This document shows positions 1,615 through 38,733 of a DNA stretch of 64,000 bases, piece by piece. This DNA is from Escherichia coli (GTDB lineage Bacteria; Pseudomonadota; Gammaproteobacteria; Enterobacterales; Enterobacteriaceae). The translations under genes and the position numbers were made by a program. A model generated the notes under the pieces. It was not told the DNA's origin. It saw nothing but the letters and a program-made list of their open reading frames with translations, and searched no databases. Numbering within the stretch: the stretch's first letter is position 1; every line of letters starts with the position of its first letter. The stretch lies in the NCBI RefSeq assembly GCF_011045215.1, contig NZ_CP049201.1, one strand, 5' to 3'.

Positions 1615-3266
1615 CCCCAGAATGCATAACTGTCGGTCATGCTGGCCCGCTGGCCAAAATCAATATCACCCAGATTTTTCGTCACCCTGTCTGCCAGCTG
1701 TCCGGCATCCTCGCCGGGCTTCTGGGTGAGGTTAAATTCAGCCCGTATCTGATACGTGGGTTTTACTTCCACCTGGCTGATACTGCCCGGAACGTAGTGA
1801 AGCGCAGAAAGAGGATCCGTTTTTTCCTGCCCCTGTTTTGTAGCGGGTGGGGTGTCATACTTCGCGAGGACATCAAGCGCTTTCTTTTCCCATCCGTCAA
1901 AGTCCGGATCGTCTTCTGGCCCCAGAAAAGGCTCGAGGGACGCCTCAAATTTTTTATCGTCATCACTCAGGAAACCGCGTGTGTCTGTATACGCCTTCAC
2001 AACCTGCTTCGTCAGATCGGGATTTTTTTTAAGCTGATCATCAAACCATTTATCCTGCCCGTTCCTCTTCGCCACTGCCCTTGCCAGCTCTGGCGAGCCT
2101 GTTTTTGCCAGATATTCCAGCACCTCACGCCGGTCACTCCGTGGATCTTCAGCCAGCCCCCACTCGATGGCCTTTTCAGTGAGCCCGGCAATGACTTTTC
2201 CAAAATTCCACGCCCAGGCCGTCACCTTGATCAACATCGGCAGCGCGTCCTCTCTGATAAATGTATTGATTTTTTCCAGCCCGCCGTTTTTAAACCAGTC
2301 CGCCAGGTCGTCCGTGACCTGCTGAATATTCGGTGCCAGCTCTTTCCCCAGCTGTCCACAGATTTCATCAATGGACGAACCCAGAACACCGGTGAGGTTT
2401 GAGACGGCGATATGTCCCCGGACGGCACCATCCGCCCCTTCCCTGGTCACCAGGTTATAGCGCTTCTGCTCCTCAATAAGCTCCCGGTAAGTTTTTCCTG
2501 ACAGACGCATCCAGGTCAGGATCTTATTACCCTCACCACCAAACAATGCATCCGCCATCCCGGCAGCCTTTTGTTCATCCTTCACCTGCAGCAATCGGTC
2601 AAAAAGAAATTCAACCTGCTCCTGGTTGTTTTTTCCCGCCATCGCCCCGGCTTTCAGCCCCAGCGCCCCGAAGACCTGCTGTATGGCACCTTTATCCGAT
2701 GCGCCATTATCATCATCAAAAACCTTGTTGCGGTACTCCTCAAACAGATCCCCGAAGTTTTCCCCGTTCAGCCCCATCTGCTTACCCAGCGAATCCCACG
2801 CTGCATACGTCTCATAATCCACACCGTAACTCCGGGCTATCCCTGCCCGCTCTGCAGTTTCACTGTTCCGGCTAAATGCTGCACCGGCAGCGCCTGCCAG
2901 TGTCAGTCCTGCCCCGACCGAAAGCCCTAACCCCGCTTTCAGAGCGGTCTTTCCACGCCCTTTCCAGCGTTCCAGACGTTCCGCACGTGCCAGCTTACGG
3001 TTAAATTTATCCTGCTCTCCGGTGGCATCATGAATTTTTTTGCCCAGCTTTTCATACTGCTTTCGCAGTTCAGTAATATCCTGCCCTGCCAGTACGCCAG
3101 CCTGAATTTTTCGTTTCAGTACATCCTGCTGGCGAGTCAGGCGAGCCACTTCCTGCGTTGCCCCTGATAATCCGTGCTTCAGTCCATCAACCGATTTTTT
3201 CCACGACGGATCTATCGTGCCGCCGATCCTGATATTCGCTTTCAGGTTATCGCCCACCGTTGCCAT
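1611..3266 (-). CDS. Tail tape measure protein
   Basis: 551 aa, coiled-coil N-terminus and Gly/Ala-rich hydrophobic segment; follows E/E' chaperone gene. Confidence 0.8.
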   Translation of the reverse strand: MATVGDNLKANIRIGGTIDPSWKKSVDGLKHGLSGATQEVARLTRQQDVLKRKIQAGVLAGQDITELRKQYEKLGKKIHDATGEQDKFNRKLARAERLERWKGRGKTALKAGLGLSVGAGLTLAGAAGAAFSRNSETAERAGIARSYGVDYETYAAWDSLGKQMGLNGENFGDLFEEYRNKVFDDDNGASDKGAIQQVFGALGLKAGAMAGKNNQEQVEFLFDRLLQVKDEQKAAGMADALFGGEGNKILTWMRLSGKTYRELIEEQKRYNLVTREGADGAVRGHIAVSNLTGVLGSSIDEICGQLGKELAPNIQQVTDDLADWFKNGGLEKINTFIREDALPMLIKVTAWAWNFGKVIAGLTEKAIEWGLAEDPRSDRREVLEYLAKTGSPELARAVAKRNGQDKWFDDQLKKNPDLTKQVVKAYTDTRGFLSDDDKKFEASLEPFLGPEDDPDFDGWEKKALDVLAKYDTPPATKQGQEKTDPLSALHYVPGSISQVEVKPTYQIRAEFNLTQKPGEDAGQLADRVTKNLGDIDFGQRASMTDSYAFWG

Positions 3267-4265: not shown

Positions 4266-5737
4266 ACTGTCAGTTCCTCCTGTGCCAGTTTATTGTTGAT
4301 CATTGTACGCAGCGTCAGGCGTTCCAGTGGTGACTTCGGCCCGAAGTCATAGTCGATATACAACTGCCCGGCAGCCAGGGTTTCTGCTGTATTCAGTTCG
4401 TCGTTCAGCCATGCGCTACCACCGTGGATCGCGCCCAGATTTTTAAGCTGGCGCATGTAGGCATTAATACTGCCGAGAATATCGTCCGCAACATCCCGAT
4501 CAATCGGACGGTCAACATAAGGCAACATGGATTCCTGAACACTGTCTTCAATCACATCAGCCGTACGGCGCACGGACTCAAAGCGCAACTGGCTATGAGA
4601 TGTGCACAGGCGGTTACCCCAGTGTTTAAAACCGTCATGACGAATAATGGTGGAGATGTTTTCCATGTTCAGCAGATTTGCCGTGCAGTTCTGCTCCCCG
4701 AGAATAAATGTATCCACCTGCTCAAGACCGGTGATATTCATCACGTCCTGATTTGATTTGGACCACCACCATCCTTTTTCATAATCAATACGGGCACGCA
4801 GTCCGGCAGCGCGTGCCGAATACGGGCGAAACACTGTTTGTCCGCTGTCATCCGTCACCGACACGCGCGGACGAAGCAGTTCAACACGCCCACCAAATAA
4901 CGTCCGGCGCTGAACCACATCCTGCGGCGTTACCATTGAGGGGGAGTCAATATAGGCAACAGCCCGCAGTTTCGCGGCATACGTTTCCAGCGCCTTTGCC
5001 ACACCATCATCCTCGCTGTAGCCAGTGGCGACAAGAATACGCGGCTGGTAGCCTGTTACGCCTTTGCTCTTCGTCAGAGCTTCCATGGCCTTAATCACTG
5101 CGGCACGCTGTTCTGCCTCCTTCGCTTTCGGTTTGCTTTCCGCACGTACCACAATCACCAGCGCACCGGTCTGGTCAAAAATATCACGCAGGGCAGGATA
5201 CAGCGTTCCGGAAGCCCCCAGCTTTCCGGCCTGCGTGAGTGCCCCCGCCACCACCACCGGCGTATTAACCGGAAATGCCTCATCCTCACCGCCGGACAAC
5301 GTCAGGGTAAAGGGAGATACCACTCCTTCCCCGACAGAATCTGCATTCAGCATGCTGGTATCGGCCATCACCGGTGAATCCTCCAGCGCATTCACAACCT
5401 CCTTCACACGTGACGCAGTGGCATTCGTCTCACCATGTTCATCTGTGCCCAGTGTGATCGTCAGGGTGTTTCCCTCCAGAGCCGCGGTTGTCTCTGCGTT
5501 TTGCTGCGTGCTTCCGTTGGCCACAACTGAAATCTCATTGCCGGACCGCCCGGCTTTTTTCGCTGTAAAATCCAGCGCGGAACTCAACAACCATGATCCG
5601 GCAGTACCGGAAGCACACACACCGCCGGAGGCGTCCGGCGCTGTCCCCACGAGGCCAATCACTGCCGTGGAGACGGTCTGCACGGCCACCGTGCCTGTCG
5701 TCAGTTCAATGGTTTCCACACCATGTAGTCCGGACAT
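4262..5737 (-). CDS. Contractile tail sheath protein (P2 FI-like)
   Basis: N-terminus MSGLHGVETIEL...VSTAVIGLVGTA and C-terminus ...LYIDYDFGP...LTLR resemble P2 FI; ORF track start 5824 is probably an upstream extension. Confidence 0.85.
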   Translation of the reverse strand: MSGLHGVETIELTTGTVAVQTVSTAVIGLVGTAPDASGGVCASGTAGSWLLSSALDFTAKKAGRSGNEISVVANGSTQQNAETTAALEGNTLTITLGTDEHGETNATASRVKEVVNALEDSPVMADTSMLNADSVGEGVVSPFTLTLSGGEDEAFPVNTPVVVAGALTQAGKLGASGTLYPALRDIFDQTGALVIVVRAESKPKAKEAEQRAAVIKAMEALTKSKGVTGYQPRILVATGYSEDDGVAKALETYAAKLRAVAYIDSPSMVTPQDVVQRRTLFGGRVELLRPRVSVTDDSGQTVFRPYSARAAGLRARIDYEKGWWWSKSNQDVMNITGLEQVDTFILGEQNCTANLLNMENISTIIRHDGFKHWGNRLCTSHSQLRFESVRRTADVIEDSVQESMLPYVDRPIDRDVADDILGSINAYMRQLKNLGAIHGGSAWLNDELNTAETLAAGQLYIDYDFGPKSPLERLTLRTMINNKLAQEELTV

Positions 5738-10195: not shown

Positions 10196-10711
10196 CGCCG
10201 GTGCCCTCCGCTTTCCAGATAAGACGATAATCCTGCACATGCTTTTTACCGGTTTCCGGTACTTTACCCAGCCAGACTTCCTGTAACGGCACACCTGCCG
10301 GAGCCGCAAACGGATCTTCGCCGACCGGAATGTCCTGTTCAAAAGAGAAAGCAAACAAACAAGATAATAAGTTGAATTTAAAGGAATAAAAAAGGCATCA
10401 TTTTTGCTTTTGGTACAAATTCTAGTCCGTATAAACGCGGAAAAATCCGCTAAATTAAGATAAAAAAGATGCTTAGATAGTTACTATGTTTAGCTTCATG
10501 GCTACGGGGAGTAAGTTTGCTCTTTGCTTAATCTCGGTTATGGAAATCCCCATATCGGCATCATGCCCACCAGCGTGACGCATTTTTTTTAATTTCGCGG
10601 GTATAAAAATTTGACGAGGCGGGCGGTCCCATAAGCAATGGGGTGTAGGGATTCCGATCCCCCTGGGGGGGGTATTAAACACCCACCCTATTTAAATACC
10701 GTCTTTTTTGT

Positions 10712-10757
10712 CACTGTGTGTCACTGGTTGTCACTCTCCGTCACGGTATGCCACCAT
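10712..10757. repeat. Clustered GTCAC(T) direct repeats
   Basis: tgtcactgtgtgtcactggttgtcactctccgtcacgg: four copies within 46 bp in a noncoding stretch between tail and island. Confidence 0.6.
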
Positions 10758-10760
10758 AAG

Positions 10761-11075
10761 TTAACGTCGTAACCGCTCCGGCTTCTTCCAGTGGTAAGTA
10801 ATTTTTTCTTTCTCCTGGTACATCTGCACGCGGCGACGGTATGACAACATCTCCAGAACTCTGGTGCGTATATTGCGCATATCCACGCCGTTAAGCTCAA
10901 TACCGTCACGGCGCATCACCTCAGCCACCACACGCGCGTAATTTTCGGCTATCACGCTGTCCGGCTGCGTGGCCTCCTGTTTGCCTGCTGGTGGTCTGAT
11001 TCCGGCAGCACGGCGAATCATTTTGAGCATTTCGGCTTCGGTCATTGTCATGGCCTCCGTGGTGATGGAAAACAA
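10761..11075 (-). CDS. Hypothetical protein
   Basis: 104 aa ORF (probable start MTMTEAEMLKMI...) just downstream of island terS; no family recognised. Confidence 0.4.
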   Translation of the reverse strand: MFSITTEAMTMTEAEMLKMIRRAAGIRPPAGKQEATQPDSVIAENYARVVAEVMRRDGIELNGVDMRNIRTRVLEMLSYRRRVQMYQEKEKITYHWKKPERLRR

Positions 11076-11084
11076 TGCCGTAAT

Positions 11085-11310
11085 TGTGGCGGGTCCTTCC
11101 TGGAAAATGAAACACCGGGGGTGGCCATACGCGCAATTCTTAACTGTTTATGAAAATTTTTCGGGAAAAGTCAGATCCGTTCTTCTTCTCTGTAACTCAT
11201 TGTTTAATGGTAAAATCATCAAAAAAAGAAAGGATCTGGCAGTGGTCATTCTGGGCCCAAAATGACGTTATCAGATCCTTTCTCAGTTTTGTTCAATAAT
11301 TGCGCGGTTG
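11085..11310 (+). other. cos-like site, inverted copy (cosQ-cosN-cosB-like)
   Basis: Plus strand GGGTCCTTCCTGG..GAAACACCGGGGGTGGCCATACGCGC..TTTATGAAAATTTTTCGGG..CCGTTCTTCTTC aligns with phage lambda cos as I recall it; opposite orientation to the other two cos sites. Confidence 0.55.
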
Positions 11311-11895
11311 TCACTCAGCTCTCTGTTGCCGTAACTTCTCCGGCACGTTTCCGGTTGTTTCCATCAGATAATCTTCCAGAATGCGGGGCAGGTTATCGGC
11401 AGTTTTAGCGCACGCATTACAGGCGCGTGCTGTTTCCCTCCTCAGGCCATCGATCATTGCCGGAGTCATCGCGGGAAACTGCCTTTGCATCGTAAGGGGC
11501 AAGCTATTCATGATGGTTGAAATCTGTTGCGCCAGTTTAGACAGTGCATACATACAAAAGCCGGTATCTATAACCTCTCCTGTCTCCCTGGCGTTCTTCA
11601 GTTCCTGCCCGTCAGCCTGTGCTTTAGTGAGACGGTATCGTTCGTACTCTGTTGTGCCTGGCTGTAAATCTGATTCACCAACGGCACGTAAATCATCAAG
11701 CTCACTGCGGAGTTTTTCTTTTTCGATCTCCTTCTCCCTCTGTACATACCATTCGATCACCTGTGAAGAGTCGAAAGTCACCTCCATACCTTTTCCGCCA
11801 CCAGATACATGGGGGAGCCCTTGCATCTGCCAACGTTCAATTGTGCGCGGATCAACACCGAAAATCTCTGCCAGTCTCTTTTTGTTAACATTCAT
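11311..11895 (-). CDS. Terminase small subunit (lambda Nu1-like)
   Basis: MNVNKKRLAEIFGVDPRTIERWQMQGLP...GGGKG...LQPGTTEYERYRL... closely resembles lambda Nu1 throughout. Confidence 0.85.
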   Translation of the reverse strand: MNVNKKRLAEIFGVDPRTIERWQMQGLPHVSGGGKGMEVTFDSSQVIEWYVQREKEIEKEKLRSELDDLRAVGESDLQPGTTEYERYRLTKAQADGQELKNARETGEVIDTGFCMYALSKLAQQISTIMNSLPLTMQRQFPAMTPAMIDGLRRETARACNACAKTADNLPRILEDYLMETTGNVPEKLRQQRAE

Positions 11896-12130
11896 TTATC
11901 AAATCCTCATCAAAAACCACCTCCGACATGAAACGCCTGAAAAACGGGATTTTCCGGCGTTATGGTGTCGTATGTTTATTATAGTTAATTTAAATAAAAA
12001 CATAATGTTACATGCAAGAAGTACCGACATGCTTTTTCCCTGAAAAATTTTCATAAATAGTGAAAATCTGCGCGTCTGCCGCCCCGCGGTGTTTCTGATT
12101 CTGGAAAGGACCCGTGAAAATTGGGGCGAT
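11896..12130 (-). other. cos site of island (cosQ-cosN-cosB)
   Basis: Minus strand ACGGGTCCTTTCC..GAAACACCGC GGGGCGGCAGAC GCGCAG..CTATTTATGAAAATTTTTCAGG about 190 nt upstream of terS start, matching lambda cos geometry. Confidence 0.6.
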
Positions 12131-12194
12131 CACCACCGTTCCGGATACAAAAAAAATCGCGAGACCTTGCCAGCCTCGCGAACGTTCATTTCAG

Positions 12195-12620
12195 TTACTT
12201 AACAGACAGCAACAGCTTTTCATCTTCGGTCAGTCCGGCGTTGCCATCACCGGCTGCTGGCCCAACACATTTCGGGCTGTGCTTTTCCATGTACGCTTCA
12301 AACAGAAAAGCCGTTTTCTTTTCCTGCATCATTGCCTGGGCATCCACGGCAGCCAGTAACGTTTGTGCATAGGTTACTGTCATTACTTCAGAACCACACT
12401 CAATCAGCTTACTGGTGAACTCAGGGTATTTTGATGCCAGCGGTAACGCCTTGATACCCTCTATGCGCTGTTTATCACTCTCAGCCTTTGCAGTAAGCAC
12501 CGTTCGGGCTTCTGTCAGTGATGCGCCATTATTTGCGAGATTTTCCGCAAGCGTCGGGTATTTCTGCGCCTCAGGCAGTGCCATGATCAATGCTCTGGTT
12601 GAATTTGCTTTCTCAGTCAT
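12195..12620 (-). CDS. Scaffolding protein (Nu3-like)
   Basis: 141 aa; ALPEAQKYPTLAENL.../ALPLASKYPEFTSKL... repeats resemble the C-terminal repeat region of the prophage C protein (24914-26395). Confidence 0.5.
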   Translation of the reverse strand: MTEKANSTRALIMALPEAQKYPTLAENLANNGASLTEARTVLTAKAESDKQRIEGIKALPLASKYPEFTSKLIECGSEVMTVTYAQTLLAAVDAQAMMQEKKTAFLFEAYMEKHSPKCVGPAAGDGNAGLTEDEKLLLSVK

Positions 12621-12634
12621 AAATCACCACAAAA

Positions 12635-12964
12635 TTATTGCCCTAAAGGCTGCACGGAAATACCGGAACCAACAAAAGACGACACTTTTTTCTCGAACGT
12701 GTCCGCTGTATCAGGCCAGTTAATTTCATCGATATTAAAAACCCCGCACTTATAAACCTGTGCGCGGTTTTTTGTGGCCGTGTTAATGTCCGATATGGTC
12801 AGATACACCGCCTTACCGGGTGTACCGTCCCACTCAACCATCAGGCCCGCGCCGTTCTGCATCAGCGGAGTTCTCGCTTTAATTTCTCCGGCACTGGCAA
12901 AACAGGCCAGCGTGCTGACCAGTTCCTGCGTGCCGGAAAGGAATTGCGTGTAAGGTGTTGGCAT
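12635..12964 (-). CDS. Head decoration protein (lambda gpD-like), divergent second copy
   Basis: 109 aa; TPLM...GLMVEWDG...VYKCGVF...WPD...GSGISV pattern matches gpD. Confidence 0.75.
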   Translation of the reverse strand: MPTPYTQFLSGTQELVSTLACFASAGEIKARTPLMQNGAGLMVEWDGTPGKAVYLTISDINTATKNRAQVYKCGVFNIDEINWPDTADTFEKKVSSFVGSGISVQPLGQ

Positions 12965-12974
12965 ACGATCCCCT

Positions 12975-14030
12975 TTATTTCACTTCGACGGTAACAAAGC
13001 GACCAATATCCACGGGTACTGGCTGCGGGGCGCTGTGCGTCTGCACGTATTCAATCGCCGGATCGCCCGGTACGATATAATTTTTCGGGTAGTACATCCC
13101 CTCAGAAAATCCCTCGCGTGCCGCGTCCTGATCCATGATGGCACCATAAGCAACAAGGCCTTTATTTTCGGTATTGCCGAAAACCATCATGTTTTGTTTC
13201 AGGAAATATTGCTGCTGCCCGTTTTCGTCGTCATAACGACCGGAATAAACCACGATCGCCACATCACCGAGATACCCCTTGAAGCTGACAACGCCGCCCA
13301 AATCTTTTAGCGCAAGTTCAAGTGACGAGTTTGAACCGCGACGCGTGTCCATTAGTTCGCGGAATCGACGGAACGAGCGCAAAATACGCCAGGCTTCGCC
13401 ACCCATGACGATAATATTTACCGTACCTTCGGAAAAATCAGCGTAAGCCTCAATGTCGCTTATCGGATCAAACGTTTCGGCATCCTGTTTTGACCATTCT
13501 TTCCCGCCAGCCTGCGTAATATGATTGGTTTCGGGTAATCCCCAGTCAATTTCATAACGCTCAATGCCTTCGCCCTCAATAACGTTACGGCCTGTTGTGA
13601 TGGCATTGACCGCCAGCCATTCAACACGCGCTTTGATGGCAGCAAGCTGTTTTTTCTGGCTGTCGTGAACCATTTTTACGCGGCGTAGTGCCGGGGAAGA
13701 CTGACCATTGCCGATCTGTTCTCCAGGCATGCGCATGATTGTTTTGGTGGGATCAATAACGTGTTTGGGCTTCATATAACCCGGCGTGAACGTGTTCGTT
13801 GTGAAACCTTTGTCACGCATAACCTGGCTGCCTGACATTGGAGAACAAAACGGACTCATGACCACGTTTTCAATATCCAGCGTATCAAGTGCAATATCTC
13901 TGGTGCTGAAAGTAGCGACGTTCGGAAAGAACAACGTAGTAAAGAGTGGATTAAATTTAAATTCCGGCACATCTTCGCGCCCGATATTTTTCAGTAGCGT
14001 TGGTGTGCTTACCAGTTGCGGCGCTGTCAT
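12975..14030 (-). CDS. Major capsid protein (lambda gpE-like), divergent second copy
   Basis: 351 aa; TPGYMKPKH, NITQAGGKEWSKQDAETFDP, DTRRGSNSSLELALKDLG motifs shared with lambda E and the prophage E at 23439-24467. Confidence 0.85.
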   Translation of the reverse strand: MTAPQLVSTPTLLKNIGREDVPEFKFNPLFTTLFFPNVATFSTRDIALDTLDIENVVMSPFCSPMSGSQVMRDKGFTTNTFTPGYMKPKHVIDPTKTIMRMPGEQIGNGQSSPALRRVKMVHDSQKKQLAAIKARVEWLAVNAITTGRNVIEGEGIERYEIDWGLPETNHITQAGGKEWSKQDAETFDPISDIEAYADFSEGTVNIIVMGGEAWRILRSFRRFRELMDTRRGSNSSLELALKDLGGVVSFKGYLGDVAIVVYSGRYDDENGQQQYFLKQNMMVFGNTENKGLVAYGAIMDQDAAREGFSEGMYYPKNYIVPGDPAIEYVQTHSAPQPVPVDIGRFVTVEVK

Positions 14031-14236
14031 TACTCACCCCCATGAGGCTGATTCATACCAAGCGCAGCGCGTAAATGGCTGCGTACCATCCAGCCGACTG
14101 ACGGCTTCACCAGGCACAACGGATCAAGGCCGATTTTTTTTCCTGCCTCTGCGTTCTCCTCAAAGCGCGCATTAAGTGCGGCGATAATATCGGGGCTGAT
14201 GTACACGGATACACCGCCCGGCTTCTGTGTTCCCAT
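14030..14236 (-). CDS. Hypothetical protein
   Basis: Small ORF immediately upstream of island capsid gene; no family recognised. Confidence 0.3.
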   Translation of the reverse strand: MGTQKPGGVSVYISPDIIAALNARFEENAEAGKKIGLDPLCLVKPSVGWMVRSHLRAALGMNQPHGGE

Positions 14237-14494
14237 AAATGAGATTCCTCTTTGACTAAAAAACAAACATAACGAAAAGTCATGTCATGATTTTAATTAT
14301 CGTTGCACTTTTTGCAATATAATTGACTATTGTTGCGAATAATGAAATCATTATGTCGTGGTTTTAATCCTTGTACCACAGAGTTGTTTAGCATTAATCA
14401 CGTTAGCGGCGTGAAATCCCCCGGAACCTCATCCCGGGGGATTTTTTTGCGCACAAAAAAGCCGGGAAAAATCCCGGCTTCTGTCACTCGTTGC

Positions 14495-14917
14495 TTAAAA
14501 CGGTATTTCATCCCCGTACGGATCATCATTTCCCGCCTGTTGTTTTGCTCTGCTCAGTGCATCAGTAGCCTGCCCCTGTTGGCCTTTTTTGCCGCCCGGT
14601 CGCGCCGTTCTGGCACTGATTACACTGTCTGCGATAACCTGCCAGCTCTGCCGCGTTTCGCCGTTCTGGCCTGTCCACTGGCTTACCTGCATGTTACCCG
14701 CCACGCTCACCAGTTCGCCTTTGCGGTGTTTTGCCAGTGCGTCGGCCTGTCTGCCAAACGCCAGGACGGATAACCACATCGTCGCCGTTCCGTCATCTGC
14801 CTGGCTGCACGGCAGGGGAACCGCCATACTCGCCATCGCCATTTGTGTTCCCTTGCTGGTGGTCTTTAACTGCGGGTCAGCCACCAGCCGCCCGTAAGCT
14901 GCTATCTGTGCTGTCAT
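14495..14917 (-). CDS. ssb: Single-stranded DNA-binding protein
   Basis: 140 aa with Gly/Gln-rich linker and acidic C-terminal tip ...DDPYGDEIPF typical of SSB. Confidence 0.7.
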   Translation of the reverse strand: MTAQIAAYGRLVADPQLKTTSKGTQMAMASMAVPLPCSQADDGTATMWLSVLAFGRQADALAKHRKGELVSVAGNMQVSQWTGQNGETRQSWQVIADSVISARTARPGGKKGQQGQATDALSRAKQQAGNDDPYGDEIPF

Positions 14918-15165
14918 GCTGTCTGCTCTCCGGTTTTAACGTTGATGGTTGTCACCTGTTCCGCTTCGGCAATCTCCCGCTCTGTCAGCGTGGCAAAGTT
15001 TGCCGCCGCTGTGGTCATGAATGCGCTTATCAGTTCGGGATGTGCTTTTGCGTATCCTTCTCCGGCATGGCGGTCTATTGTTCTGATTGCCACCTTTAAG
15101 GCGTGCTCTGTCATGTCTAACGCTTTATATTTTGGCGCTGTCTTATCTCTGGTTTTTTTGGTCAT
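14914..15165 (-). CDS. Hypothetical protein
   Basis: 83 aa ORF between replication gene/iterons and ssb. Confidence 0.4.
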   Translation of the reverse strand: MTKKTRDKTAPKYKALDMTEHALKVAIRTIDRHAGEGYAKAHPELISAFMTTAAANFATLTEREIAEAEQVTTINVKTGEQTA

Positions 15166-15188
15166 TTCTCACTATTCCCCACTTTTTC

Positions 15189-15367
15189 GCCTCACTTTTT
15201 AAGCTCCCAACATGATTTCCAACCTTGTTTTTTTGTGATTCTAATATGTTGTTTTTCAATGTGTTTTTTATTCCTCACTTTTGAGCCTATATACAGGTTG
15301 AAAAGTGAGGGGCGCGGTTGCTTTTTGTTCAGTTTCTGCTATCCCCTCACTTTTGTGCCTCACTTTT
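15189..15367. repeat. Iteron cluster (putative island replication origin)
   Basis: CCTCACTTTT at 15189, 15273, 15345, 15358 plus inverted copy AAAAGTGAGG at 15301, directly 3' of helicase-primase gene. Confidence 0.55.
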
Positions 15368-16782
15368 TACAGTGGGCGCACATCATCACCGTCAATAGTG
15401 ATAACGCCGTCTCTTTCCAGCTTGTACAGCCAGCGCCGAAAGTTTTTCATCTCATACCCCAGCTTTTTCATATCATCACGCAATAACGGGATAGTGCATT
15501 TATCGCCGCGCTGTGTGCGTGAACGGATACAGCCCCATAGCGCGGCGTGATTCTCCGTCTTGTTTCCGGCCTCCTCAATGCGCTCCAGTTCAACAGGTGG
15601 GCGCGGCTTATCCACTACCACCAGCGACGTGATTAACTCCTTGTCAGCGTCGATAAAAAGCTCCACCACGCGTAAATCGTATGCGGCCTCTTTCAGTTCC
15701 TCTGCGTCCTTCATTTTGGTGCAGGAGATAACCAGGGCTTCACTGTCTGCACCTTCCCGGCGAATACGGTATTCAGCGTCCAGAGATGCACGAAATGCAC
15801 TGGAACCACGCGCCCCCTTTGTTTCATCCTTGCCGGAATGGTGAACCACCAGTACCGTGGCCCCTGTGCGTCGTTTCAGTTCGTCACATCCACGGATAAA
15901 CGCCCCCATATCCCGCGCGTCATTTTCATCATTACCGCCAAAACACCGCGCCAGCGTATCCAGAATAATCATGCGTACCGGTTTACCCGTTTCCCTTTCA
16001 ACCTGGCGGGAAGCGATGACCATTTCATCAATATCAAACTGTGCTGCCGGAAAAATCGGGCGGTTTACCAGGTACAGATTTTTCACCCGTTCATCATTAA
16101 CGATTTCCCATGCTTTGATACGACGAGGGACACCAATGCCACCTTCACCGACGACATACATCACCGAACCATGCGCCACCCTGCGGCCTCCCCAGTGGCG
16201 ACCCGTGGCAACATGACACGCCCAGGAACACGCGAGGAATGATTTATAGGAACCGCTCGCGCCGTATGTGCTGCACAACGAATTAGCCGGAATCACGCCC
16301 TTAACGACATAATCAAGCTGTGTGTCGTACCCTGCAGATCCAATACTCATTGGTAGCGTGGTTTTTCGCTGGTCGTTTTTTTCTTCCTCCGGTATCTCTC
16401 CGGACCGTCTTTTCTGGCGCTCTCGTTCCAGATATTCGCGCCACCCCTCCCGCTTCTGGCTGTGCATTCCCTCAGGGTAATAATTCGCATCCCGTACACC
16501 TGCCGCTGCCAGCTTTTGCCCGATGGCATTAATATTTGACGGCTTGATGTGGCCTGCCTTGTACAGCCGGACACAATAGCGACCATCGTCGATAATTTTC
16601 AGGTCAGCCAGTTCGTCAAGATGGCTGTCTCCAAGCCATACAGGCGGAACATTGTCGCCAGCAAGTCGCCCGTCCTGCTCCTGCCATTGTTTCGCGTGCG
16701 CCCAGGCATCACTACCCGCAAAAATAATGACTTCGGTCATTTTGTCGTGCGGCTGTTTTTTTAAGTTCGGTGCCAGTTTCAT
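15367..16782 (-). CDS. Replication protein, RepA-like helicase/primase (AAA_25-type P-loop NTPase)
   Basis: 471 aa; Walker A GASGSYKS, Walker B RMIILDTLARCF, ...VLVVHHSGKDE...; N-terminal extra domain. Confidence 0.7.
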   Translation of the reverse strand: MKLAPNLKKQPHDKMTEVIIFAGSDAWAHAKQWQEQDGRLAGDNVPPVWLGDSHLDELADLKIIDDGRYCVRLYKAGHIKPSNINAIGQKLAAAGVRDANYYPEGMHSQKREGWREYLERERQKRRSGEIPEEEKNDQRKTTLPMSIGSAGYDTQLDYVVKGVIPANSLCSTYGASGSYKSFLACSWACHVATGRHWGGRRVAHGSVMYVVGEGGIGVPRRIKAWEIVNDERVKNLYLVNRPIFPAAQFDIDEMVIASRQVERETGKPVRMIILDTLARCFGGNDENDARDMGAFIRGCDELKRRTGATVLVVHHSGKDETKGARGSSAFRASLDAEYRIRREGADSEALVISCTKMKDAEELKEAAYDLRVVELFIDADKELITSLVVVDKPRPPVELERIEEAGNKTENHAALWGCIRSRTQRGDKCTIPLLRDDMKKLGYEMKNFRRWLYKLERDGVITIDGDDVRPL

Positions 16783-17078
16783 TTTTTACCCCTGAATGCG
16801 TTAATCATGTTTTTCATTTTCTGAATGTTCGCCCGTGCCTTTGCGTTGCTGGTGGGCTGTTTGCATGGCGTGGCCTGTATCAGTGAAAAATCACGCCGGA
16901 ACTGATAAACAGGCATCACGCAGTCATAGCCGTACCCATCACGGCGGTAAGTAACGCACCGTCCCGCCACGCTTTTAATCGTTACCGTGCCGCCGTAGTT
17001 ATCCCGGAAAATATCGCCGGGGCGGATTTCAGGCCGAGCGGGGCCGCTGGCAGTAAAGCCAGAAATTTTCTGTTTCAT
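16779..17078 (-). CDS. Hypothetical protein
   Basis: 99 aa ORF, start overlaps helicase-primase gene. Confidence 0.4.
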   Translation of the reverse strand: MKQKISGFTASGPARPEIRPGDIFRDNYGGTVTIKSVAGRCVTYRRDGYGYDCVMPVYQFRRDFSLIQATPCKQPTSNAKARANIQKMKNMINAFRGKK

Positions 17079-17094
17079 GGTTTTTATTCCTCTG

Positions 17095-17294
17095 CGCGGG
17101 TCTTGTTGTGTATTTCCATAACCGCGTTTAATTCATCAATAACCGGGGTTAACAGAGTGCTGAAAGCAGAAAATAAATCCCCCCCCCTGTTCGGCATGAA
17201 CTTCGGTTAATTTAATTAATACCGCTTTCATTTCCAGTGCCCGGTTTAATGCATTCTCAGAATGAATAAGAACATCGAAAGGGATTTTATCCAT
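17095..17294 (-). pseudogene. Small ORF interrupted at G9 homopolymer (frameshift or phase-variable)
   Basis: ATG at 17294 reads MDKIPFDVLIHSENALNRALEMKAVLIKLTEVHAEQGGG then poor frame; with G8 it continues ...DLFSAFSTLLTPVIDELNAVMEIHNKTRAEE to a stop 5 nt before next gene. Confidence 0.35.
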
Positions 17295-17753
17295 GGCTTA
17301 CATCCTCCGGGAATTTTCTTCTGTAACGCGCCTCTGCAACATATTCCGCATAGTCCGACGCAATATTGAGAATCTCCACACCCTCTGACCTGTAGCCACT
17401 GGTACTGATAAGAAAAAATGCGGCTTTCATCATGTCGGCAACGCATAACAACGCATCGCCTGTATGTTCCGGTGCGCCATCAAATTCCTGTTTCAGGGCA
17501 TTAAAACGATCATCACGCATAACCCCCCCCCATTTTCACAATCAGTAATCAGGATGGCTTTAGCCTCATTCAGTGCCATATCAGCACTAAATTGCATAAC
17601 AGCCAGTGAGTGAGGAACGAAATCCCCGGCATATTCTGTTTCGCTGGTGGCGTGCTTATGTGCCCTGTCCGCGATAACAGAAATATCAATCAGCGCGTGC
17701 ATCAGCGTTTTGATGGCTTCGGCGGCTGCGTCCTGACGGGTGTTATTGCACAT
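17287..17753 (-). pseudogene. Gene split by G9 homopolymer (86-aa + 77-aa ORFs; fuse with G10)
   Basis: ORF 17493-17753 ends ...CENGGGLCVMIVLMP; one extra G in the tract at 17523-17531 gives ...GGGVMRDDRFNALKQEF... continuous with ORF 17287-17520. Confidence 0.4.
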
Positions 17754-17949
17754 GGCGCACCTCCTGACGAATACGGGCGGCGAATACCATCACGCAGCCA
17801 TCAGGAGATTGCTGACGCGCTTCCTGTTCGTTGGTGGCCTCAATGGTAATCACGCGCGGTTGTGCCGTGCTCAGGGCGATAAAACGCCAGATGTATTTAT
17901 TCAGGTTGTGCGAGTCCCGCCCTTGCGGGTGTGTGGTATGATTTAACAT
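17743..17949 (-). CDS. Small protein, first gene of leftward island operon (Cro-like position)
   Basis: 68 codons (MLNHTTHPQGRD...RHVQ) with RBS GAGGT; divergent from RHH gene across operator region; not in ORF track as a separate ORF. Confidence 0.4.
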   Translation of the reverse strand: MLNHTTHPQGRDSHNLNKYIWRFIALSTAQPRVITIEATNEQEARQQSPDGCVMVFAARIRQEVRHVQ

Positions 17950-18088
17950 AGCTACCTCGATAATCTTGCTATCGTTGGTGGTTAGACGCCCTGCATGTGT
18001 ACCACCACTGCGGGGCGTTGCGTTTTTTGATGTGCACGTGTTAAGGTGTACACCTAACGAACCAAAACATAACGCCATAGGTGTACAC
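17950..18088. promoter_or_regulatory. Divergent promoter/operator region of island
   Basis: Perfect palindrome GGTGTACACC at 18045-18054 and GGTGTACAC at 18080-18088 just before the RHH start; CACGTG at 18033. Confidence 0.5.
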
Positions 18089-18283
18089 ATGTCAACAGTT
18101 ATTAAGCGCGATAAAAAACAAAAAGGCACAGGAAAGGCCCCACCATTCCATATGCGTATAGTCCCTGAATTGAAGGAGCAGTTTGATAACGAAGCCAGTA
18201 ACGATGGAGTAAGTCTTGCCAACTGGCTTAAAGAGTTAGGGCGCAAAGAACTGCTACGGCGCGGAATTGAACCAAAGGGATAA
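18089..18283 (+). CDS. Ribbon-helix-helix-like DNA-binding protein (putative island repressor or antitoxin)
   Basis: 64 aa from MSTVIKRDKKQKG...; basic N-terminus, start right after operator palindromes. Confidence 0.45.
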   Translation: MSTVIKRDKKQKGTGKAPPFHMRIVPELKEQFDNEASNDGVSLANWLKELGRKELLRRGIEPKG

Positions 18284-18292
18284 CTATCACTA

Positions 18293-18823
18293 ATGTCGCA
18301 ACCAGAGGAGTTGCGACTCCGAAGATTACATAGGAAATTAATGATTATGGGATTCGTCATTTTCATTGCGATCGTAATTTTATCCATTTACGTTCTTACC
18401 AAATTATTTATTTCAGAAAATTCACACGACAAAATTAGAGCCGAGGCATCCAGAAGAATTGCACAAGAAGAGGCCGAACGGGCTAAGTTGTATGAAGAGA
18501 GAAAGGAATCATCTGATAATCCTGTTAATAAACAAAAACGAATAACAACACACGAAGATCATTTTTATATGGATATTCATGGTGGTCACAAATATATATG
18601 TGTTGATGCTAAGTTAGTTTTTGAATATGCAAATTTAAAACACAACTATTTTCTTCACGCCTCTCACTATTTCCCTGAGTTAGAGTATGTTTATGGAAAA
18701 AACGAACATGGGAAAATAGTTAGAGTAGATTTGTACGATAAAAAAATTCAAGCTATTAACCCCGATACTGGCGAAAAAATACCTGGTGTGAGACGTTATC
18801 TACGACAGCACAAGATAAAATAG
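18293..18823 (+). CDS. Hypothetical membrane-anchored protein (AT-rich cargo gene)
   Basis: 176 aa; N-terminal TM helix MIMGFVIFIAIVILSIYVLTKLF; markedly AT-rich; followed by hairpin+T-run terminators. Confidence 0.45.
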   Translation: MSQPEELRLRRLHRKLMIMGFVIFIAIVILSIYVLTKLFISENSHDKIRAEASRRIAQEEAERAKLYEERKESSDNPVNKQKRITTHEDHFYMDIHGGHKYICVDAKLVFEYANLKHNYFLHASHYFPELEYVYGKNEHGKIVRVDLYDKKIQAINPDTGEKIPGVRRYLRQHKIK

Positions 18824-19238
18824 CCCACCGGAATTTTTTTCCGGTTACGCTTTGCCCACCAGCCGCAAATGTGGCATTGTTGGCTATGCTCATGCGTTGG
18901 GGATAACGCGCAATTAGTGTTGAAGGGCCACCGTAGCGGGTGGCCTTTGTTTTGCCTGTTATCCGGCAATTGTGGCGCTTCGCCACACGGTTGATATAAT
19001 CCTCCTGCACAGATTCATTTTTTGCGCAGCAGGTTAATTGTTCGCAAGGGCGCTCCGGCAACTGGGCGCTTTTTGTTTTTACCCACCAGCACAATAAAAA
19101 TCTTCATTTTCCATTTTTGCAAAATTTCATGCTTTCCGGACGACTGGCCATATGTCATTTTTTAGCAGAAGATTTTGCCTTGCTGGTGGGTAGCTTCCCG
19201 GTTAACACGATGTACCGTATAATCAGCACCGCACGCGG

Positions 19239-19820
19239 TTACTGAATACGCTCACCAAAGTAAAACTCAGGCTGATATTCACGTATCAGCCTTTTTTCTT
19301 CTTCCTCCAGCTCACGCTTTTTGCGCTTACATGCCTGTAGTTCCCTCCCCTTCTCGCTGGCACTTATCTGGTATTGCTCTTTGCGACGGGAAAAATCCTG
19401 TAATGCGCCCCACGGGATACCATAAGCCCCCGTTTTTCTGATACCCGGTATCACATTTCTGAATACCCAGTTACTGAAACGATGGGCGAACGTGCCAGGA
19501 GTAGCAGCTTTTCGACTTCTGGCAATCAGCTTGTAAAAACCAGATTCAGAAACGACGCTATGATTTGGATTTCCGCGAATACCGTAAGTTAAAGTTACGG
19601 TATTACTTTCATCATCATCCAGAGCTTGCAACGCCATGCGTGAATTAGTCAGTTCCAGCGCAGCGCAGACATCCTTTGCAACAAACCACGGATCGCCGTT
19701 CAGATACACCACGCGAACGTTCACACTATCAAAGCGCAGAACGACCAGATCACGAATATCACAGAATTTTTTCACTGGACGTGCGTCACCCTTGCCAGTC
19801 ACGGCAATATTTTTATTCAT
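19239..19820 (-). CDS. Bro-N domain protein (putative antirepressor)
   Basis: 193 aa; N-terminal ...GDPWFVAKDVCAALEL... Bro-N-like; coiled-coil C-terminus. Confidence 0.55.
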   Translation of the reverse strand: MNKNIAVTGKGDARPVKKFCDIRDLVVLRFDSVNVRVVYLNGDPWFVAKDVCAALELTNSRMALQALDDDESNTVTLTYGIRGNPNHSVVSESGFYKLIARSRKAATPGTFAHRFSNWVFRNVIPGIRKTGAYGIPWGALQDFSRRKEQYQISASEKGRELQACKRKKRELEEEEKRLIREYQPEFYFGERIQ

Positions 19821-19870
19821 CGCTTTTTACCTCACATACAAAAAACCCCGCATTGCGCGGGGTATATCAA

Positions 19871-20080
19871 TCATTGACGATATTCATTAGCTTGTTTTCG
19901 TTGTCTTTCCAGCCACGATGCAACATCATCACGATGCCATGCGTTGCGTCGCCCAATCTTAAAGGGGCGTGGAAATTTATTTTTTTCATCATTCATGAAA
20001 GCGTAAAATGCACTCATTGCACCGTAGCGAAGCTCTGCCATCACGTCTTTGGTAAATAGAATATTGCCGTTAGTGCTCAT
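19871..20080 (-). CDS. AlpA-family transcriptional regulator/excisionase-like
   Basis: 69 aa, ...RRNAWHRDDVASWLE... typical AlpA/Xis HTH; immediately downstream of P4-type int. Confidence 0.75.
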   Translation of the reverse strand: MSTNGNILFTKDVMAELRYGAMSAFYAFMNDEKNKFPRPFKIGRRNAWHRDDVASWLERQRKQANEYRQ

Positions 20081-20086
20081 ATTGCC

Positions 20087-21319
20087 TCACATATTCACTA
20101 CTTTTAGCCCCTGATGACCACCAGAACGACGGATAATTCCCTTTCTGGCATCATCAACAAAATCACCAATCCATTGCATCATGATCTTACGTTGCTCAAA
20201 ATATTTTGAGCGATTATAAATATCACGAATAGCATCGCCGCTTTTATGGGCTAATGCTGCCTCAATAACATCTGGGTTAAACCCTTCTTCGTTGAGTAAC
20301 GTACTCCACATAGCCCGGAATCCGTGGGCAGTTGCAATACCATAAAATTGTCCATCTTTGAAACACTTATGACGCAACACGCTTGATATAGCTTTCCCCG
20401 GATTCTTTGGAGAAAAAAATATATAGCTACCACATTTTATTTTATTCATTTCATTTAAAATATCCACGGCTTGCCGTGAAAGCGGAACTACGTGTTCACG
20501 TCCACACTTCATTCTTTCAGGGGGAATTGTCCAGATACAATTTTCTAAATCAATTTCCTCCCATTTTGCCTCCCTTGCTTCACATGGTCGTACCATAGTG
20601 AAAATCTGGAACAAAAGAGAGCATCTTATAGAGATATTACTTGTAGTATCCCACCAGTTCAAAAATTCTGATAACAGTTCAACTGGTAATGCCTTTAATG
20701 GGGTATGTTTTTTTGTTGCAAATGCATTTCTTATTGTTGATAGCGGGTTATTTTTAATTACTCCAGAGTTAACACAGTAATTCATTATTTCATTAATTTT
20801 TGAAATAATTTTATCCAATACAGAATTACGATCAGAAAATTGATTAAGCAATGGTATGACCACAGGCGCGGTCATATCATGTATGTACACATTTCCAAAT
20901 ACAGGGATTATATGTCTGTTCAATAACTCTTCTATTGTCTGTAAAGTCGACAGTCGCAAATCACCTTTTTTCTTAAAATTAAACCATTCAATTGCAATAG
21001 CACCAAACGTCTGTAAGTGCTTTCTTTTAGCCTCGAGTCGTTTTTCTGCCCGGTATGATAACGGATCTATATCCCGTGCCAACAATCTGCGCAGATTATC
21101 GCGTTCTTCTCTGGCTTCAACCAGCGTGAAATCGGGGTATCGCCCTATAGTGTATGTTTGCCGCTTCTTCGTAAAAGGTTGTACATAACGAAAACGCCAC
21201 GATTTACTACCGGCTTTTGACACATAAAGCAAAAGCCCAAACCCATCATATAGAGCGTAATCTTTCTCTCGTGGCCTGGCGCTTTTTACCTCTGATGCAG
21301 TAAGAGGCTTCACCGACAT
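20087..21319 (-). CDS. Tyrosine integrase, P4/CP4-57 type
   Basis: N-terminus MSVKPLTASEVKSARPREKDYALYDGFGLLLYVSKAGSKSWRFRY typical of P4-like integrases; C-terminal catalytic domain ...AHGFRAMWSTLLNE... Confidence 0.9.
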   Translation of the reverse strand: MSVKPLTASEVKSARPREKDYALYDGFGLLLYVSKAGSKSWRFRYVQPFTKKRQTYTIGRYPDFTLVEAREERDNLRRLLARDIDPLSYRAEKRLEAKRKHLQTFGAIAIEWFNFKKKGDLRLSTLQTIEELLNRHIIPVFGNVYIHDMTAPVVIPLLNQFSDRNSVLDKIISKINEIMNYCVNSGVIKNNPLSTIRNAFATKKHTPLKALPVELLSEFLNWWDTTSNISIRCSLLFQIFTMVRPCEAREAKWEEIDLENCIWTIPPERMKCGREHVVPLSRQAVDILNEMNKIKCGSYIFFSPKNPGKAISSVLRHKCFKDGQFYGIATAHGFRAMWSTLLNEEGFNPDVIEAALAHKSGDAIRDIYNRSKYFEQRKIMMQWIGDFVDDARKGIIRRSGGHQGLKVVNM

Positions 21320-21433
21320 ACAAGCACTCCAATACAAATTTTTTCTAGTCCATGCGCTGGTTCCTTTTGCCAGAATACTGGCGATAAAAAAGCGAAAAAC
21401 AAGGAACAATGCACACAATGAAAAAACCGCAAC

Positions 21434-21898
21434 TTATTGAATAAGAAGAAAAACAAAAAGAAACGGTAACGAAAGATAATGATTGCATAGTCCAAAAGAG
21501 ACACGGAAAACGATGTAGTCGTCCAGCAGTCGGTCGAAGGTATCCACCTCAGCATCAATAAAAACCGCCGGATCAACGTTATCCAGCCCGAACGTGGCTC
21601 CATCAATCCAGTCAGATAAATCCATTGCCAGACAGCGGGCAAATATCTGCGGTTTTGGCACGTTTTCCGTCTTTCCGGCCCGATCAGTCACCACAAACAG
21701 ATCGCATTTCAGCGTGACCCGTGTCTGCCCGTCGGCAAACTGAGCCTTGTCCCAGCCGGGTACATCCACAAACACGGCAGGCGTCACCAGTTGCGTCACT
21801 TTTTCCGGGTACTCATCGGCATCTTCCACCCAGGGAATTTGTTTCAGACTGTCAATCACTGCCTGATGCCAGGTTCCCATCATCAATGGTTCCATCAT
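21434..21898 (-). CDS. Putative tail-completion/head-tail adaptor-like protein, C-terminus atypical at island junction
   Basis: 154 aa after Z-like gene; last about 20 residues (LCNHYLSLPFLFVFLLIQ) are low-complexity and read into the A-rich junction next to island int. Confidence 0.4.
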   Translation of the reverse strand: MMEPLMMGTWHQAVIDSLKQIPWVEDADEYPEKVTQLVTPAVFVDVPGWDKAQFADGQTRVTLKCDLFVVTDRAGKTENVPKPQIFARCLAMDLSDWIDGATFGLDNVDPAVFIDAEVDTFDRLLDDYIVFRVSFGLCNHYLSLPFLFVFLLIQ

Positions 21899-24913: not shown

Positions 24914-26395
24914 TTACGGCATACTCATCAGCAGTTCTTCTTCCCCGTTCCCGGCAGTTCCGCCACCGGAAACGGCACTGGCGGCATGCTGTGCCATGAA
25001 GCGCTCAAAAAGTGTTACCTGTGACGGTTGCGATACTGATGGCGCAGCTGCCAGCAGTGTTTTCGCCTGGTCCACTGTCATTCCCGGCTGTTCAGCCAGC
25101 GCCTGTGCCAGTTTTTCGCGTCCTTTTGCTTCCGGAAGTGCCATTATCTGCTCGCCGGTACTTGCCGCACCGGTTGCCGGTGCCGCTGCCAGTAACATTT
25201 TCGCCTGTTCCACCGTCATTCCCGGCTGTTCAGCCAGCGTCCGTGCCAGTTGTTCACGCCCTTTTGCTTCCGGAAGTGCCACAATCTGATCGCCAGTACT
25301 GTCAGTACCGGCAACCGGTGCCGCTGCCAGTAACGTTTTCGCCTGCTCAACTGACATTCCCTGCTGACCTGCCAGCATCTGCGCCAGTTTTTCGCGTCCT
25401 TTCGCCTCCTGACAATTCAGGATCCCCATCACGCGCTGATTTTCCTGGGACACCGCTTCAGCAACGGTGAGATTTTTTGTTGTCATCGTATTCTCCTGTG
25501 TAACAGAGTCGTTCAGAGCAGAAACCATTACATCAACGGCATCTGCAGCATTAATCAGTTGATCAGCCAGGCCTGTATCAATGCCTGCCTGACCGTCATA
25601 AACGGCAGCCTCGGTATTCATCACCACCTCTGAACTCAGCCCCGTATAAAGTGCCACCTTGTCGACAAACATCCGGCGGGCCTCATCAATACGGCGCTGA
25701 AAATCCGCACGCACACCTGTCGGCAACGCCTGAATACTGTTGCCGTCAACCTTGTGCTGCCCGGAGTAAATCAGCGTGATATCCACCCCTTCCTGTGCCA
25801 GTTGTTTCTCATAACTGATGTGCGCCATCATCACACCAATCGAACCAATTTTTGCCGTCTGCGTGACCAGCCGACGCGTACAGGCTGCCGCCAGCAACAT
25901 GGCGGCTGAACAGGCCATGTCATTACACAGCGCCCACACGGGCTTCTGTTCCCGCAGACGGTAAATCATGTCAGCACAGTCAAACGCCCCGGCAGCCTGA
26001 CCGCCAGGACTGTCGATATCCAGCAAAATACCGCGCACATCCGGATCATTCACCGCCAGCTGAAGACGGGCGGTAAGACCGTCATAGCCTGTCATGCCAG
26101 AGTAAGGCCTCAGGGTACCCATTTTATGTACCAGCGTGCCGCTCACCGGCAGAATGGCGATGCCATTTTTCACCTGATAGCATTTTTCAGGACGCCGGCC
26201 ACCAGACATATAGTCCGCCACCGCCAGTTGCATACCGTCGGCATCAAGCTGAACATCCAGTTGCGGAACGGAAAGACTGCCCGCCCCCATCTCCTTACCC
26301 AGCGCGCAAAAGAAAACCCGCGCATAGGCGGGTTCCAGTAAAAGCGGTTCATTAAATGCCATGGCGGCAATATGCGATAAATTACGACGCATCAC
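24914..26395 (-). CDS. Head maturation protease/scaffold (lambda gpC-Nu3-like, S49 peptidase family)
   Basis: 493 aa; SppA/ClpP-like core ...GILLDIDSPGGQAAG...; C-terminal repeated scaffold-like segment. Confidence 0.85.
   Translation of the reverse strand: MMRRNLSHIAAMAFNEPLLLEPAYARVFFCALGKEMGAGSLSVPQLDVQLDADGMQLAVADYMSGGRRPEKCYQVKNGIAILPVSGTLVHKMGTLRPYSGMTGYDGLTARLQLAVNDPDVRGILLDIDSPGGQAAGAFDCADMIYRLREQKPVWALCNDMACSAAMLLAAACTRRLVTQTAKIGSIGVMMAHISYEKQLAQEGVDITLIYSGQHKVDGNSIQALPTGVRADFQRRIDEARRMFVDKVALYTGLSSEVVMNTEAAVYDGQAGIDTGLADQLINAADAVDVMVSALNDSVTQENTMTTKNLTVAEAVSQENQRVMGILNCQEAKGREKLAQMLAGQQGMSVEQAKTLLAAAPVAGTDSTGDQIVALPEAKGREQLARTLAEQPGMTVEQAKMLLAAAPATGAASTGEQIMALPEAKGREKLAQALAEQPGMTVDQAKTLLAAAPSVSQPSQVTLFERFMAQHAASAVSGGGTAGNGEEELLMSMP
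25030..25390 (-). repeat. Three in-frame tandem repeats of about 108 bp within the protease/scaffold gene
   Basis: Protein repeats ...GMTVEQAKxLLAAAP...TGxQIxALPEAKGREKLAxxLAEQP... x3; DNA repeats read directly. Confidence 0.6.
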
Positions 26396-30560: not shown

Positions 30561-30790
30561 ACACCCTCTTTAGCTGTTCACTTTACACTCAACTCCGTTT
30601 TTGCCGCTATTTTCCCACAAACTGGTCGGACTTCCGGTTTTCTTGATAACTAAAAACAATATAATCAATTGGTTAGATAATTAAAAAACCGGAAGTGGAA
30701 CTCGAAAAATTTTCATAAATAGCGCGTTTTTGCGCGTCCTACGACCCCCGGTGTTTCAGATTCCGGAAAGGACCCGCGCAAATGAGAGCA
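30561..30790 (-). other. cos site of prophage (cosQ-cosN-cosB)
   Basis: Minus strand GGGTCCTTTCCGGAATCTGAAACACCG GGGGTCGTAGGA CGCGCAAAAACGCGCTATTTATGAAAATTTTTCG, about 180 nt upstream of terS. Confidence 0.6.
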
Positions 30791-38732: not shown

Positions 38733-38733
38733 G

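Follow-up and report, generated by a model that had tools for sequence, protein, structure and literature searches.

In a phage, one cos site is followed by co-oriented terS and terL genes. The stretch of Escherichia coli DNA analysed here (64,000 nucleotides of contig NZ_CP049201.1, assembly GCF_011045215.1; hereafter, the window) contains, on the contrary, a satellite in which two cos sites converge on a lone terS, without terL. This raises the question of what the outer, inverted site is and what it does. An earlier note, made from the sequence alone, had offered three readings: a scar of recombination between two cos-containing genomes, an invertible packaging cassette, or a bidirectional packaging origin.

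Anatomy of the inverted cos site

The window has three, and only three, occurrences of the core pattern GGGTCCTT-N40-55-TTTATGAAAATTTTTC (11091-11162 on the plus strand; 12042-12113 and 30704-30775 on the minus strand), and none of 100 shuffles gave a match. A cos-core profile search found all three copies (A, B and C, respectively) with E-values of 6e-22 to 3e-25. A repeat search paired 11077-11169 with 12035-12127 as inverted arms of 93 nt that are 75% complementary. Copy A was resolved by alignment with the reconstituted cos of lambda and of phage 21:

11091..11283, +: copy A, equivalent of cos2, a complete cos pointing at the 3' end of terS
11091-11098, +: cosQ
11118-11129, +: cosN position, 12 nt, GGGGTGGCCATA
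11147-11162, +: I2
11172-11188, +: R3, CAGATCCGTTCTTCTTC
11193-11205, +: IHF-like site
11227-11238, +: R2
11272-11283, +: R1

Counted from position 1 of cosN, R3 lies at 55-71, I1 at 76-88, R2 at 110-121 and R1 at 155-166; the annotation of phage 21 gives, by the same count, 50-65, 74-86, 107-122 and 150-166. Copy A hence has cosQ, cosN and cosB in the lambda order and spacing, and both island sites reproduce the arrangement of the lambda and phage 21 cos. By analogy with its homologue in EcCICFT073, the only one for which this function has been demonstrated (PMC6092414), copy A would be nicked to cohesive ends and used in packaging. Motif count, profile and alignment thus agree with the earlier note that a third, inverted cos unit is present, and the subsite positions bear out that it points at the 3' end of terS, opposite to copy B. 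Relative to copy A, the terS stop codon (11311-11313) occupies the place of the TerS start codon in a phage. A 98-aa open reading frame crossing copy A (10969-11265, +) has a non-protein-like sequence and is antisense to conserved genes.

The R sites of copy A have the form CAGATCC.../GGATCTG. Its R3, R2 and R1 are identical to those of the cos of a lambdoid prophage of strain GE3 (L013), where the site precedes co-oriented TerS and TerL genes. Among 13 distinct sequences of this type, the spacers have diverged, but R3/R2/R1, I2 and cosQ are the same in all.

Copies B and C, the genes that they precede and the gene beside copy A are the following:

11920..12113, -: copy B, equivalent of cos1, a complete cos co-oriented with terS
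12113-12106, -: copy B cosQ
12086-12075, -: copy B cosN, CGGGGCGGCAGA
12057-12042, -: copy B I2
12031-12016, -: copy B R3, phage-21-type
12010-11998, -: copy B IHF-like site
11974-11960, -: copy B R2
11933-11920, -: copy B R1
11311..11895, -: island terS, 194 aa, lambda Nu1/phage 21 gp1 family (phrog_57, E = 8e-63)
10761..11051, -: conserved gene of ~95 aa (phrog_1561), starting ~40 nt from the cosQ of copy A
30630..30775, -: copy C, cos of the helper prophage, with a third cosB type (ACTTCCGGTTTT / AAAACCGGAAGT)
30051-30560, -: helper terS, downstream of copy C
28163-30115, -: helper terL, downstream of copy C

Copies B and C were likewise aligned with lambda and phage 21, and both contain the full set of cosQ, cosN position, I2, R3, IHF-like site, R2 and R1, spaced as in lambda. 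From cosN to the terS ATG, copy B has 192 nt, lambda 191 and phage 21 189, and copy B with terS reproduces the junction of cos and gene 1 in phage 21. The island TerS matches the lambda TerS structure (PDB 6hn7_B) with E = 5.6e-37. Its DNA-binding domain is identical to phage 21 gp1 at 41 of 60 positions and to the helper TerS at only 11 of 60. The C-terminal half, in contrast, shares 40 of 83 residues with the helper TerS and 30 of 83 with phage 21. As judged from these identities, the protein is a chimera, with a phage-21-like DNA-binding domain and a helper-like C-terminal half. Copy B and terS form a matched pair, since the R sites of copy B are, like this DNA-binding domain, of the phage 21 type. 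A 220-aa open reading frame antisense to terS (11381-12043, +) has a non-protein-like sequence and opposes a conserved gene.

The comparison of the three copies corrects two claims of the earlier note. The inverted repeats were put at about 230 bp; the real similarity extends over ~72-93 nt, from cosQ to I2, with 75-81% identity. Nor does the core of copy A resemble the prophage cos more than the island one: it shares 62 of 77 positions with B and 57 of 75 with C (9/13 and 7/12, respectively, over the 12-nt cosN). The proposed alignment of A against B and C therefore supports a similarity of the cores, but the cosB halves belong to different types; those of A and B are analogous in layout and identical at 89 of 163 positions (z = 3). 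All three copies, the helper's included, share one cosQ/cosN class, with flanks GAAACACCG and CGCGCA. In this class, the 12-nt cosN position is highly variable, with eight variants among the loci, and the three of the window (11118-11129, 12075-12086 and 30737-30748) all differ. Lambda-class islands, unlike this class, keep GGGCGGCGACCT invariant.

The satellite, its probable helper and its relatives

The ends of the satellite were placed with the aid of strain C5 (L011), whose prophage is 97% identical but lacks the 11.15 kb. The comparison with a prophage lacking the island, which had been proposed as a check, thus became possible and sets the junctions at 10348 and 21493.

10349..21501, -: whole satellite, ~11.15 kb
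10340-10348 and 21493-21501: att core CAAAAGAGA, flanking the satellite
20087-21418, -: integrase
19871-20080, -: AlpA-like helix-turn-helix protein
19239-19820, -: Bro/anti-repressor
15367-16782, -: primase-helicase
14495-14917, -: SSB
12975-14030, -: major capsid protein, island late gene
12635-12964, -: head decoration protein, island late gene
12195-12620, -: Nu3/scaffold-like protein, 141 aa, island late gene upstream of cos1
12157..12181, -: terminator-like site from a consensus scan (10-bp stem, T8), between the scaffold-like gene and cos1

The genes follow in the order integrase, AlpA-like protein, Bro/anti-repressor, Icd-like, DUF4222, primase-helicase, SSB and major capsid protein, then decoration, Nu3/scaffold-like, copy B, terS, copy A and the 95-aa gene. 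The AlpA-like call is based on the RefSeq label of a homologue ("helix-turn-helix transcriptional regulator") and on position, the protein having no match in PHROGs. Integrase, AlpA-like, Bro and primase genes, a size within ~10-15 kb, att cores and the lack of tail and lysis genes agree with a Gram-negative PICI. The empty site in C5 is a 183-aa gene (L011 2680-3231). This late gene (phrog_1072), between neck/tail-completion genes and baseplate V, is split by the satellite, and all satellite genes lie on the same strand as the prophage late genes. The host prophage is lambdoid and combines a lambda-like head with a P2-like tail. Hence, the satellite is probably a helper-embedded PICI, with the surrounding prophage as its probable helper. 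A junction artefact between satellite and prophage was ruled out as the origin of copy A, because the satellite ends at 10348, ~740 bp beyond it, and the 95-aa gene in between belongs to the island in all relatives.

The terminator-like site ahead of cos1 may mean that terS needs read-through or antitermination. No sigma-70-like promoter was found by scan in 10300-12700, a result that is uninformative for the promoters of terS and the 95-aa gene. The helper itself is a striking mosaic. Next to the head/P2-tail late module, which is 97% identical in the two strains, C5 has an early region with a Mu-like transposase (L011 14883-16077), and the window has lambdoid genes for lysis, a methyltransferase and O/P-like replication (31000-46500). 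Furthermore, three tandem 138-nt units occupy 25041-25454, with 100, 83 and 66% identity to the first; judging by the C5 annotation, they fall in the S49 protease gene of the helper. A 36-nt motif of these units recurs at 12349-12384, in the island Nu3/scaffold-like gene.

EcCICFT073 (Fillol-Salom et al. 2018 ISME J, PMC6092414; 2019 Mol Cell, PMC6739421) belongs to the same island family and has the same gene order. In NC_004431.1 (1376500-1390500), the major capsid, decoration and scaffold-like genes, arranged as in the window, are followed by cos(+), rppA, cos(-) and the 95-aa gene. The profile places one site upstream of rppA and co-oriented with it, and the other downstream, inverted, beside the 95-aa homologue. 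The cos.1 sequence and the delta-cos.2 primers from the literature correspond to this pair of sites. Because layout and mapping agree, copy B is equated with cos1 and copy A with cos2. In the window, too, two complete cos sites flank the specificity gene, the outer one beside the 95-aa gene. In both islands, cosQ/cosN is common, cosB differs, and the inner site matches the specificity protein. The 95-aa protein, 74% identical to its EcCICFT073 homologue and without a Pfam match, marks the cos2 side in all relatives.

The two islands differ in several respects. EcCICFT073 carries an Rpp, which acts through the helper TerS, whereas the central gene of the window is a full-length TerS with a phage-21-type DNA-binding domain, matching RppC only weakly (E = 0.002). 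The cosQ/cosN class of the window (GAAACACCG / GGGGT... / CGCGCA, with a variable 12-mer) is, unlike that of EcCICFT073, not lambda's. The cos2 R sites are of the CAGATCC type in the window and of the CCGGACAT type in EcCICFT073, the latter cosB looking, by inspection, like a near relative of that of the native 21-type helper. The window module is a TerS variant of the EcCICFT073-type dual-cos module, as in EcCIRM12579.

EcCIRM12579 and its relatives (O55:H7, O157:H7, Nissle 1917, ATCC 25922; PMC6092414 Table S1) also have cos1, terS and an inverted cos2, the latter with a CAGATCC-type cosB like copy A. Both of their sites, however, contain the lambda-class cosN (GGGCGGCGACCT) within 47 bp of perfect core identity, their TerS has a different DNA-binding domain paired with a type X cos1, and they are integrated in the chromosome (phoQ, yejO) rather than in a prophage. 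The helper-embedded PICIs described by Tommasini, Mageeney and Williams 2023 (PMC10111431) show the same four zones as the window satellite: integration, Bro, replication and late. That paper mentions a single shared cos-like segment, compared with two cos here. The phrog_1072 target, by baseplate V of a P2-like tail, is not among its listed lambda-cognate sites and may be a further target for such PICIs.

In total, 33 sources were surveyed: the window, 9 RefSeq loci and 23 IMG/VR loci. A convergent cos pair around terS, rpp or a terS-deleted remnant is present in the window and in 28 of the 32 related loci. In the remaining four, both sites are not in view, and no island had any other arrangement. 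Such islands occur in hundreds of O157, Nissle 1917 and ATCC 25922 genomes. The cosQ/cosN class, either lambda's GGGCGGCGACCT class or that of the window, is always common to the two sites of one island. The cosB type, by comparison, moves: type X is found at cos2 in L003 and L019 and at cos1, with a cognate TerS, in L008, L012, L018 and L021, and the 21-like type at cos1 in the window and at cos2 in L020. These distributions show cosB modules changing places between cos1 and cos2 from one island to another.

In the ProQ/PerC-type islands, an outer pair of decayed inverted cos remnants surrounds the complete inner pair (L014, about 2036-2108 (+) and 5599-5644 (-); L002, 13836-13887 (-); also L025), which suggests successive cassette insertions.

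Role of the second site

[quoted passage not shown] In EcCICFT073, either site cloned alone makes a plasmid transferable, deletion of cos1 lowers transfer, deletion of both abolishes it, and RppA directs recognition of the cos1 cosB (PMC6092414; PMC6739421). Deletion of cos2 raises lambda-mediated transfer (PMC6092414).

That copy A is the cos2 of a PICI of the EcCICFT073 family can be held with high confidence. As for function alone, the chance that such a cos2 serves as a second packaging start for a helper of another specificity seems about even. Taken as a whole, the reading of copy A as cos2, a second start for an other-class helper in a convergent dual-cos module, is the one preferred here, as somewhat more probable than its negation. 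Among the three earlier readings, the bidirectional packaging origin is best supported, as it matches cos1 and cos2 of EcCICFT073, both shown to mediate transfer (PMC6092414, PMC6739421). The subsite anatomy, the homology with cos1 and cos2, the correspondence of cosB type and TerS type and the inversions described below are observed directly. The use of cos2 in the island of the window, and the class of helper using it, we infer.

In the proposed mechanism, the island TerS would bind the phage-21-type R sites of cos1 and recruit the helper TerL through its helper-like C-terminal half. Island concatemers would be cut at cos1 and packaged in the terS direction. The cos2 site would suit the same kind of TerL, since its cosQ/cosN class is the same, and its cosB, with CAGATCC... 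R sites, would be recognised by the TerS of a different lambdoid phage class. Packaging from cos2, in the opposite direction on circular or concatemeric island DNA, would then give a second helper specificity. Because the sites converge at a distance of 0.95 kb, packaging begun at one would be truncated by a cut at the other, which would explain the competition revealed by cos2 deletion in EcCICFT073. Only one site is expected to be in use with a given helper, the use of both on one concatemer being mutually harmful.

Several points speak against this function of cos2. In EcCICFT073, the site reduced lambda transfer rather than helping it (PMC6092414), and copies A, B and C differ in their cosN 12-mers. 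Service to the resident helper was considered and rejected, as the cosB types differ (the helper has the third type). Among the O55/O157 genomes listed (a spread sample of ~430 with a homologous island), the only match to copy A at E <= 1e-8 was the island's own site; hence, no resident prophage with the cosB of copy A is present in them. None of the 23 IMG/VR matches, mostly island-sized (~4-15 kb), is a contig ending at cosN.

Copy A could instead be a cis element, either a decoy whose cosB soaks up helper TerS or terminase, or a terminator in which the R1-R2 palindrome and a U-run end terS transcription. The palindrome with its U7 lies directly after the terS stop, on the sense strand, and folds at -35.7 kcal/mol (z = -3.7), with none of 200 shuffles as stable. 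However, such a palindrome is inherent to a lambda-type cosB, and the EcCICFT073 cos2 has, by inspection, no comparable hairpin with U-run. For a decoy, the increased lambda-mediated transfer on cos2 deletion indicates that the site does compete for terminase (PMC6092414), but a decoy should match the cosB of the resident helper, and copy A does not. Moreover, cosQ, cosN and I2 would be needless for either role, yet they are conserved. This explanation is therefore considered unlikely.

Slightly less credit still is given to copy A as an inert relic, the scar of a captured or swapped cos-terS segment with no packaging role now. The cassette at 11088-12120 is 91% identical to L002, with homology ending at the outer cosQ edges. 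It behaves as a module exchanged between different island backbones, as a discrete unit left by such a swap would. The decayed outer pair of the ProQ/PerC-type islands shows that old sites can stay behind, and capture of helper genes by the late zone of PICIs has been described (PMC10111431). On the other hand, the site is complete in all relatives, its R3/R2/R1, I2 and cosQ do not vary despite diverging spacers, its cosQ-cosN class goes with that of cos1 in each island, and the EcCICFT073 homologue is functional (PMC6092414; PMC6739421). A recombination scar, as proposed in the earlier note, is hence not preferred as an explanation by itself, since every relative examined has the second site intact, with invariant R sites.

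Inversion of the terS segment

In a comparison with L002, the cassette (11088-12120) is reversed relative to the matching backbone segments of the island. Alignments among the related islands show at least four independent inversions, with breakpoints inside the cos-derived repeats:

Event 1: L014 and L016 standard, L002, L015 and L017 flipped; flanks homologous right up to the cos cores
Event 2: L018 against L008, L012 and L021; L018 4170-5110 corresponds to L008 9890-8950 reversed, both flanks direct
Event 3: L020, flipped, at another chromosomal site
Event 4: L025, flipped between the outer pair of decayed cos remnants (3.3 kb)

L018 and L021 have identical TerS and 95-aa proteins in cassettes of opposite orientation. 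Between them, the spacer on the cosQ side stays with the flank, while I2 and cosB move with terS, which places the crossover in ~30 bp centred on cosN. Elsewhere among the islands, the crossover points differ. In some islands, the cores of the two sites are identical over 47-72 bp, cosN included, which is the mark of gene conversion between them.

The flipped state was found in 5 of 1048 genomes with one junction query, specific to one cassette type. In the IMG/VR orientation sample, 15 loci had the standard orientation and 2 the inverted one, and a further 2 were inverted and had terS deleted. Most of terS is lost in three flipped islands (L017, L029, L032), which suggests a loss of function. 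In these and in the decayed island L009 (8961-9492), where most of terS is gone as well, both cos sites are retained ~530 bp apart. A second small terminase gene of the DUF1441 type (phrog_141) adjoins the flipped cassette upstream in 6 of the 7 flipped ProQ/PerC-type islands (L002 11010-11519, L015, L017, L029, L032 and L044, L025 being without it), compared with 0 of the 4 in standard orientation.

Very improbable is a programmed switch, in which the flip would set terS on or off relative to the late operon and change the cos site used: the recurrent events among collinear islands, the opposite orientations of L018 and L021 and the perfect core identities would suit it, but flipped islands are rare, the window has no gene for an invertase near the segment, and the crossover points vary, as homologous exchange would give, instead of falling in conserved short sites. 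In the window itself, a flip is unlikely because the cores are only 75-81% identical and the cosN 12-mers differ. The invertible cassette of the earlier note thus holds on an evolutionary scale, with both orientations in collinear relatives, and fails as a programmed device. The evidence argues for inverted cos cores as an occasional recombination substrate. Alongside the preferred role of cos2 as a second packaging start, gene conversion, rare inversions and whole-cassette exchange between backbones would be by-products of the inverted cores.

A further idea, as unlikely as the decoy or terminator, is that the convergent pair is itself a terminase-driven recombination module that shuffles packaging specificity. 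Where both sites have the same cosN (EcCICFT073, EcCIRM12579, L014, L018/L021), helper terminase cutting at both would free a ~0.95-kb cosB-terS-cosB fragment. With identical cohesive ends, it could re-anneal either way or be swapped with a fragment from a co-replicating island or phage. The crossover of L018/L021 near cosN fits this idea and, equally, short-homology recombination. If true, it would mean a cut-and-paste shuffling of the DNA-binding domain and cosB among satellites and helpers with no dedicated recombinase.

The text of the two EcCICFT073 papers makes no mention of inverted sites or of a flipping segment, and a search of article text in openly accessible journals returned nothing on inverted cos in satellites beyond these two. 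The arrangement is nevertheless already known from EcCICFT073, and the window is a TerS-encoding, helper-embedded example of it. What apparently goes beyond the earlier papers is the convergent layout in every related island with both sites in view, the shuffling of cosB types as modules while the cosQ/cosN class is coordinated within an island, and the recurrent inversions at the cos cores. For annotation, a terS between two cos sites inside a prophage should be taken as a warning of an embedded satellite, and not of a rearranged phage. The cosB modules of the two sites differ in specificity, and both specificities are those of real phages. The resulting testable model, one satellite with two terminase specificities, bears on satellite host range; such satellites also occur in O157:H7, Nissle 1917 and ATCC 25922.
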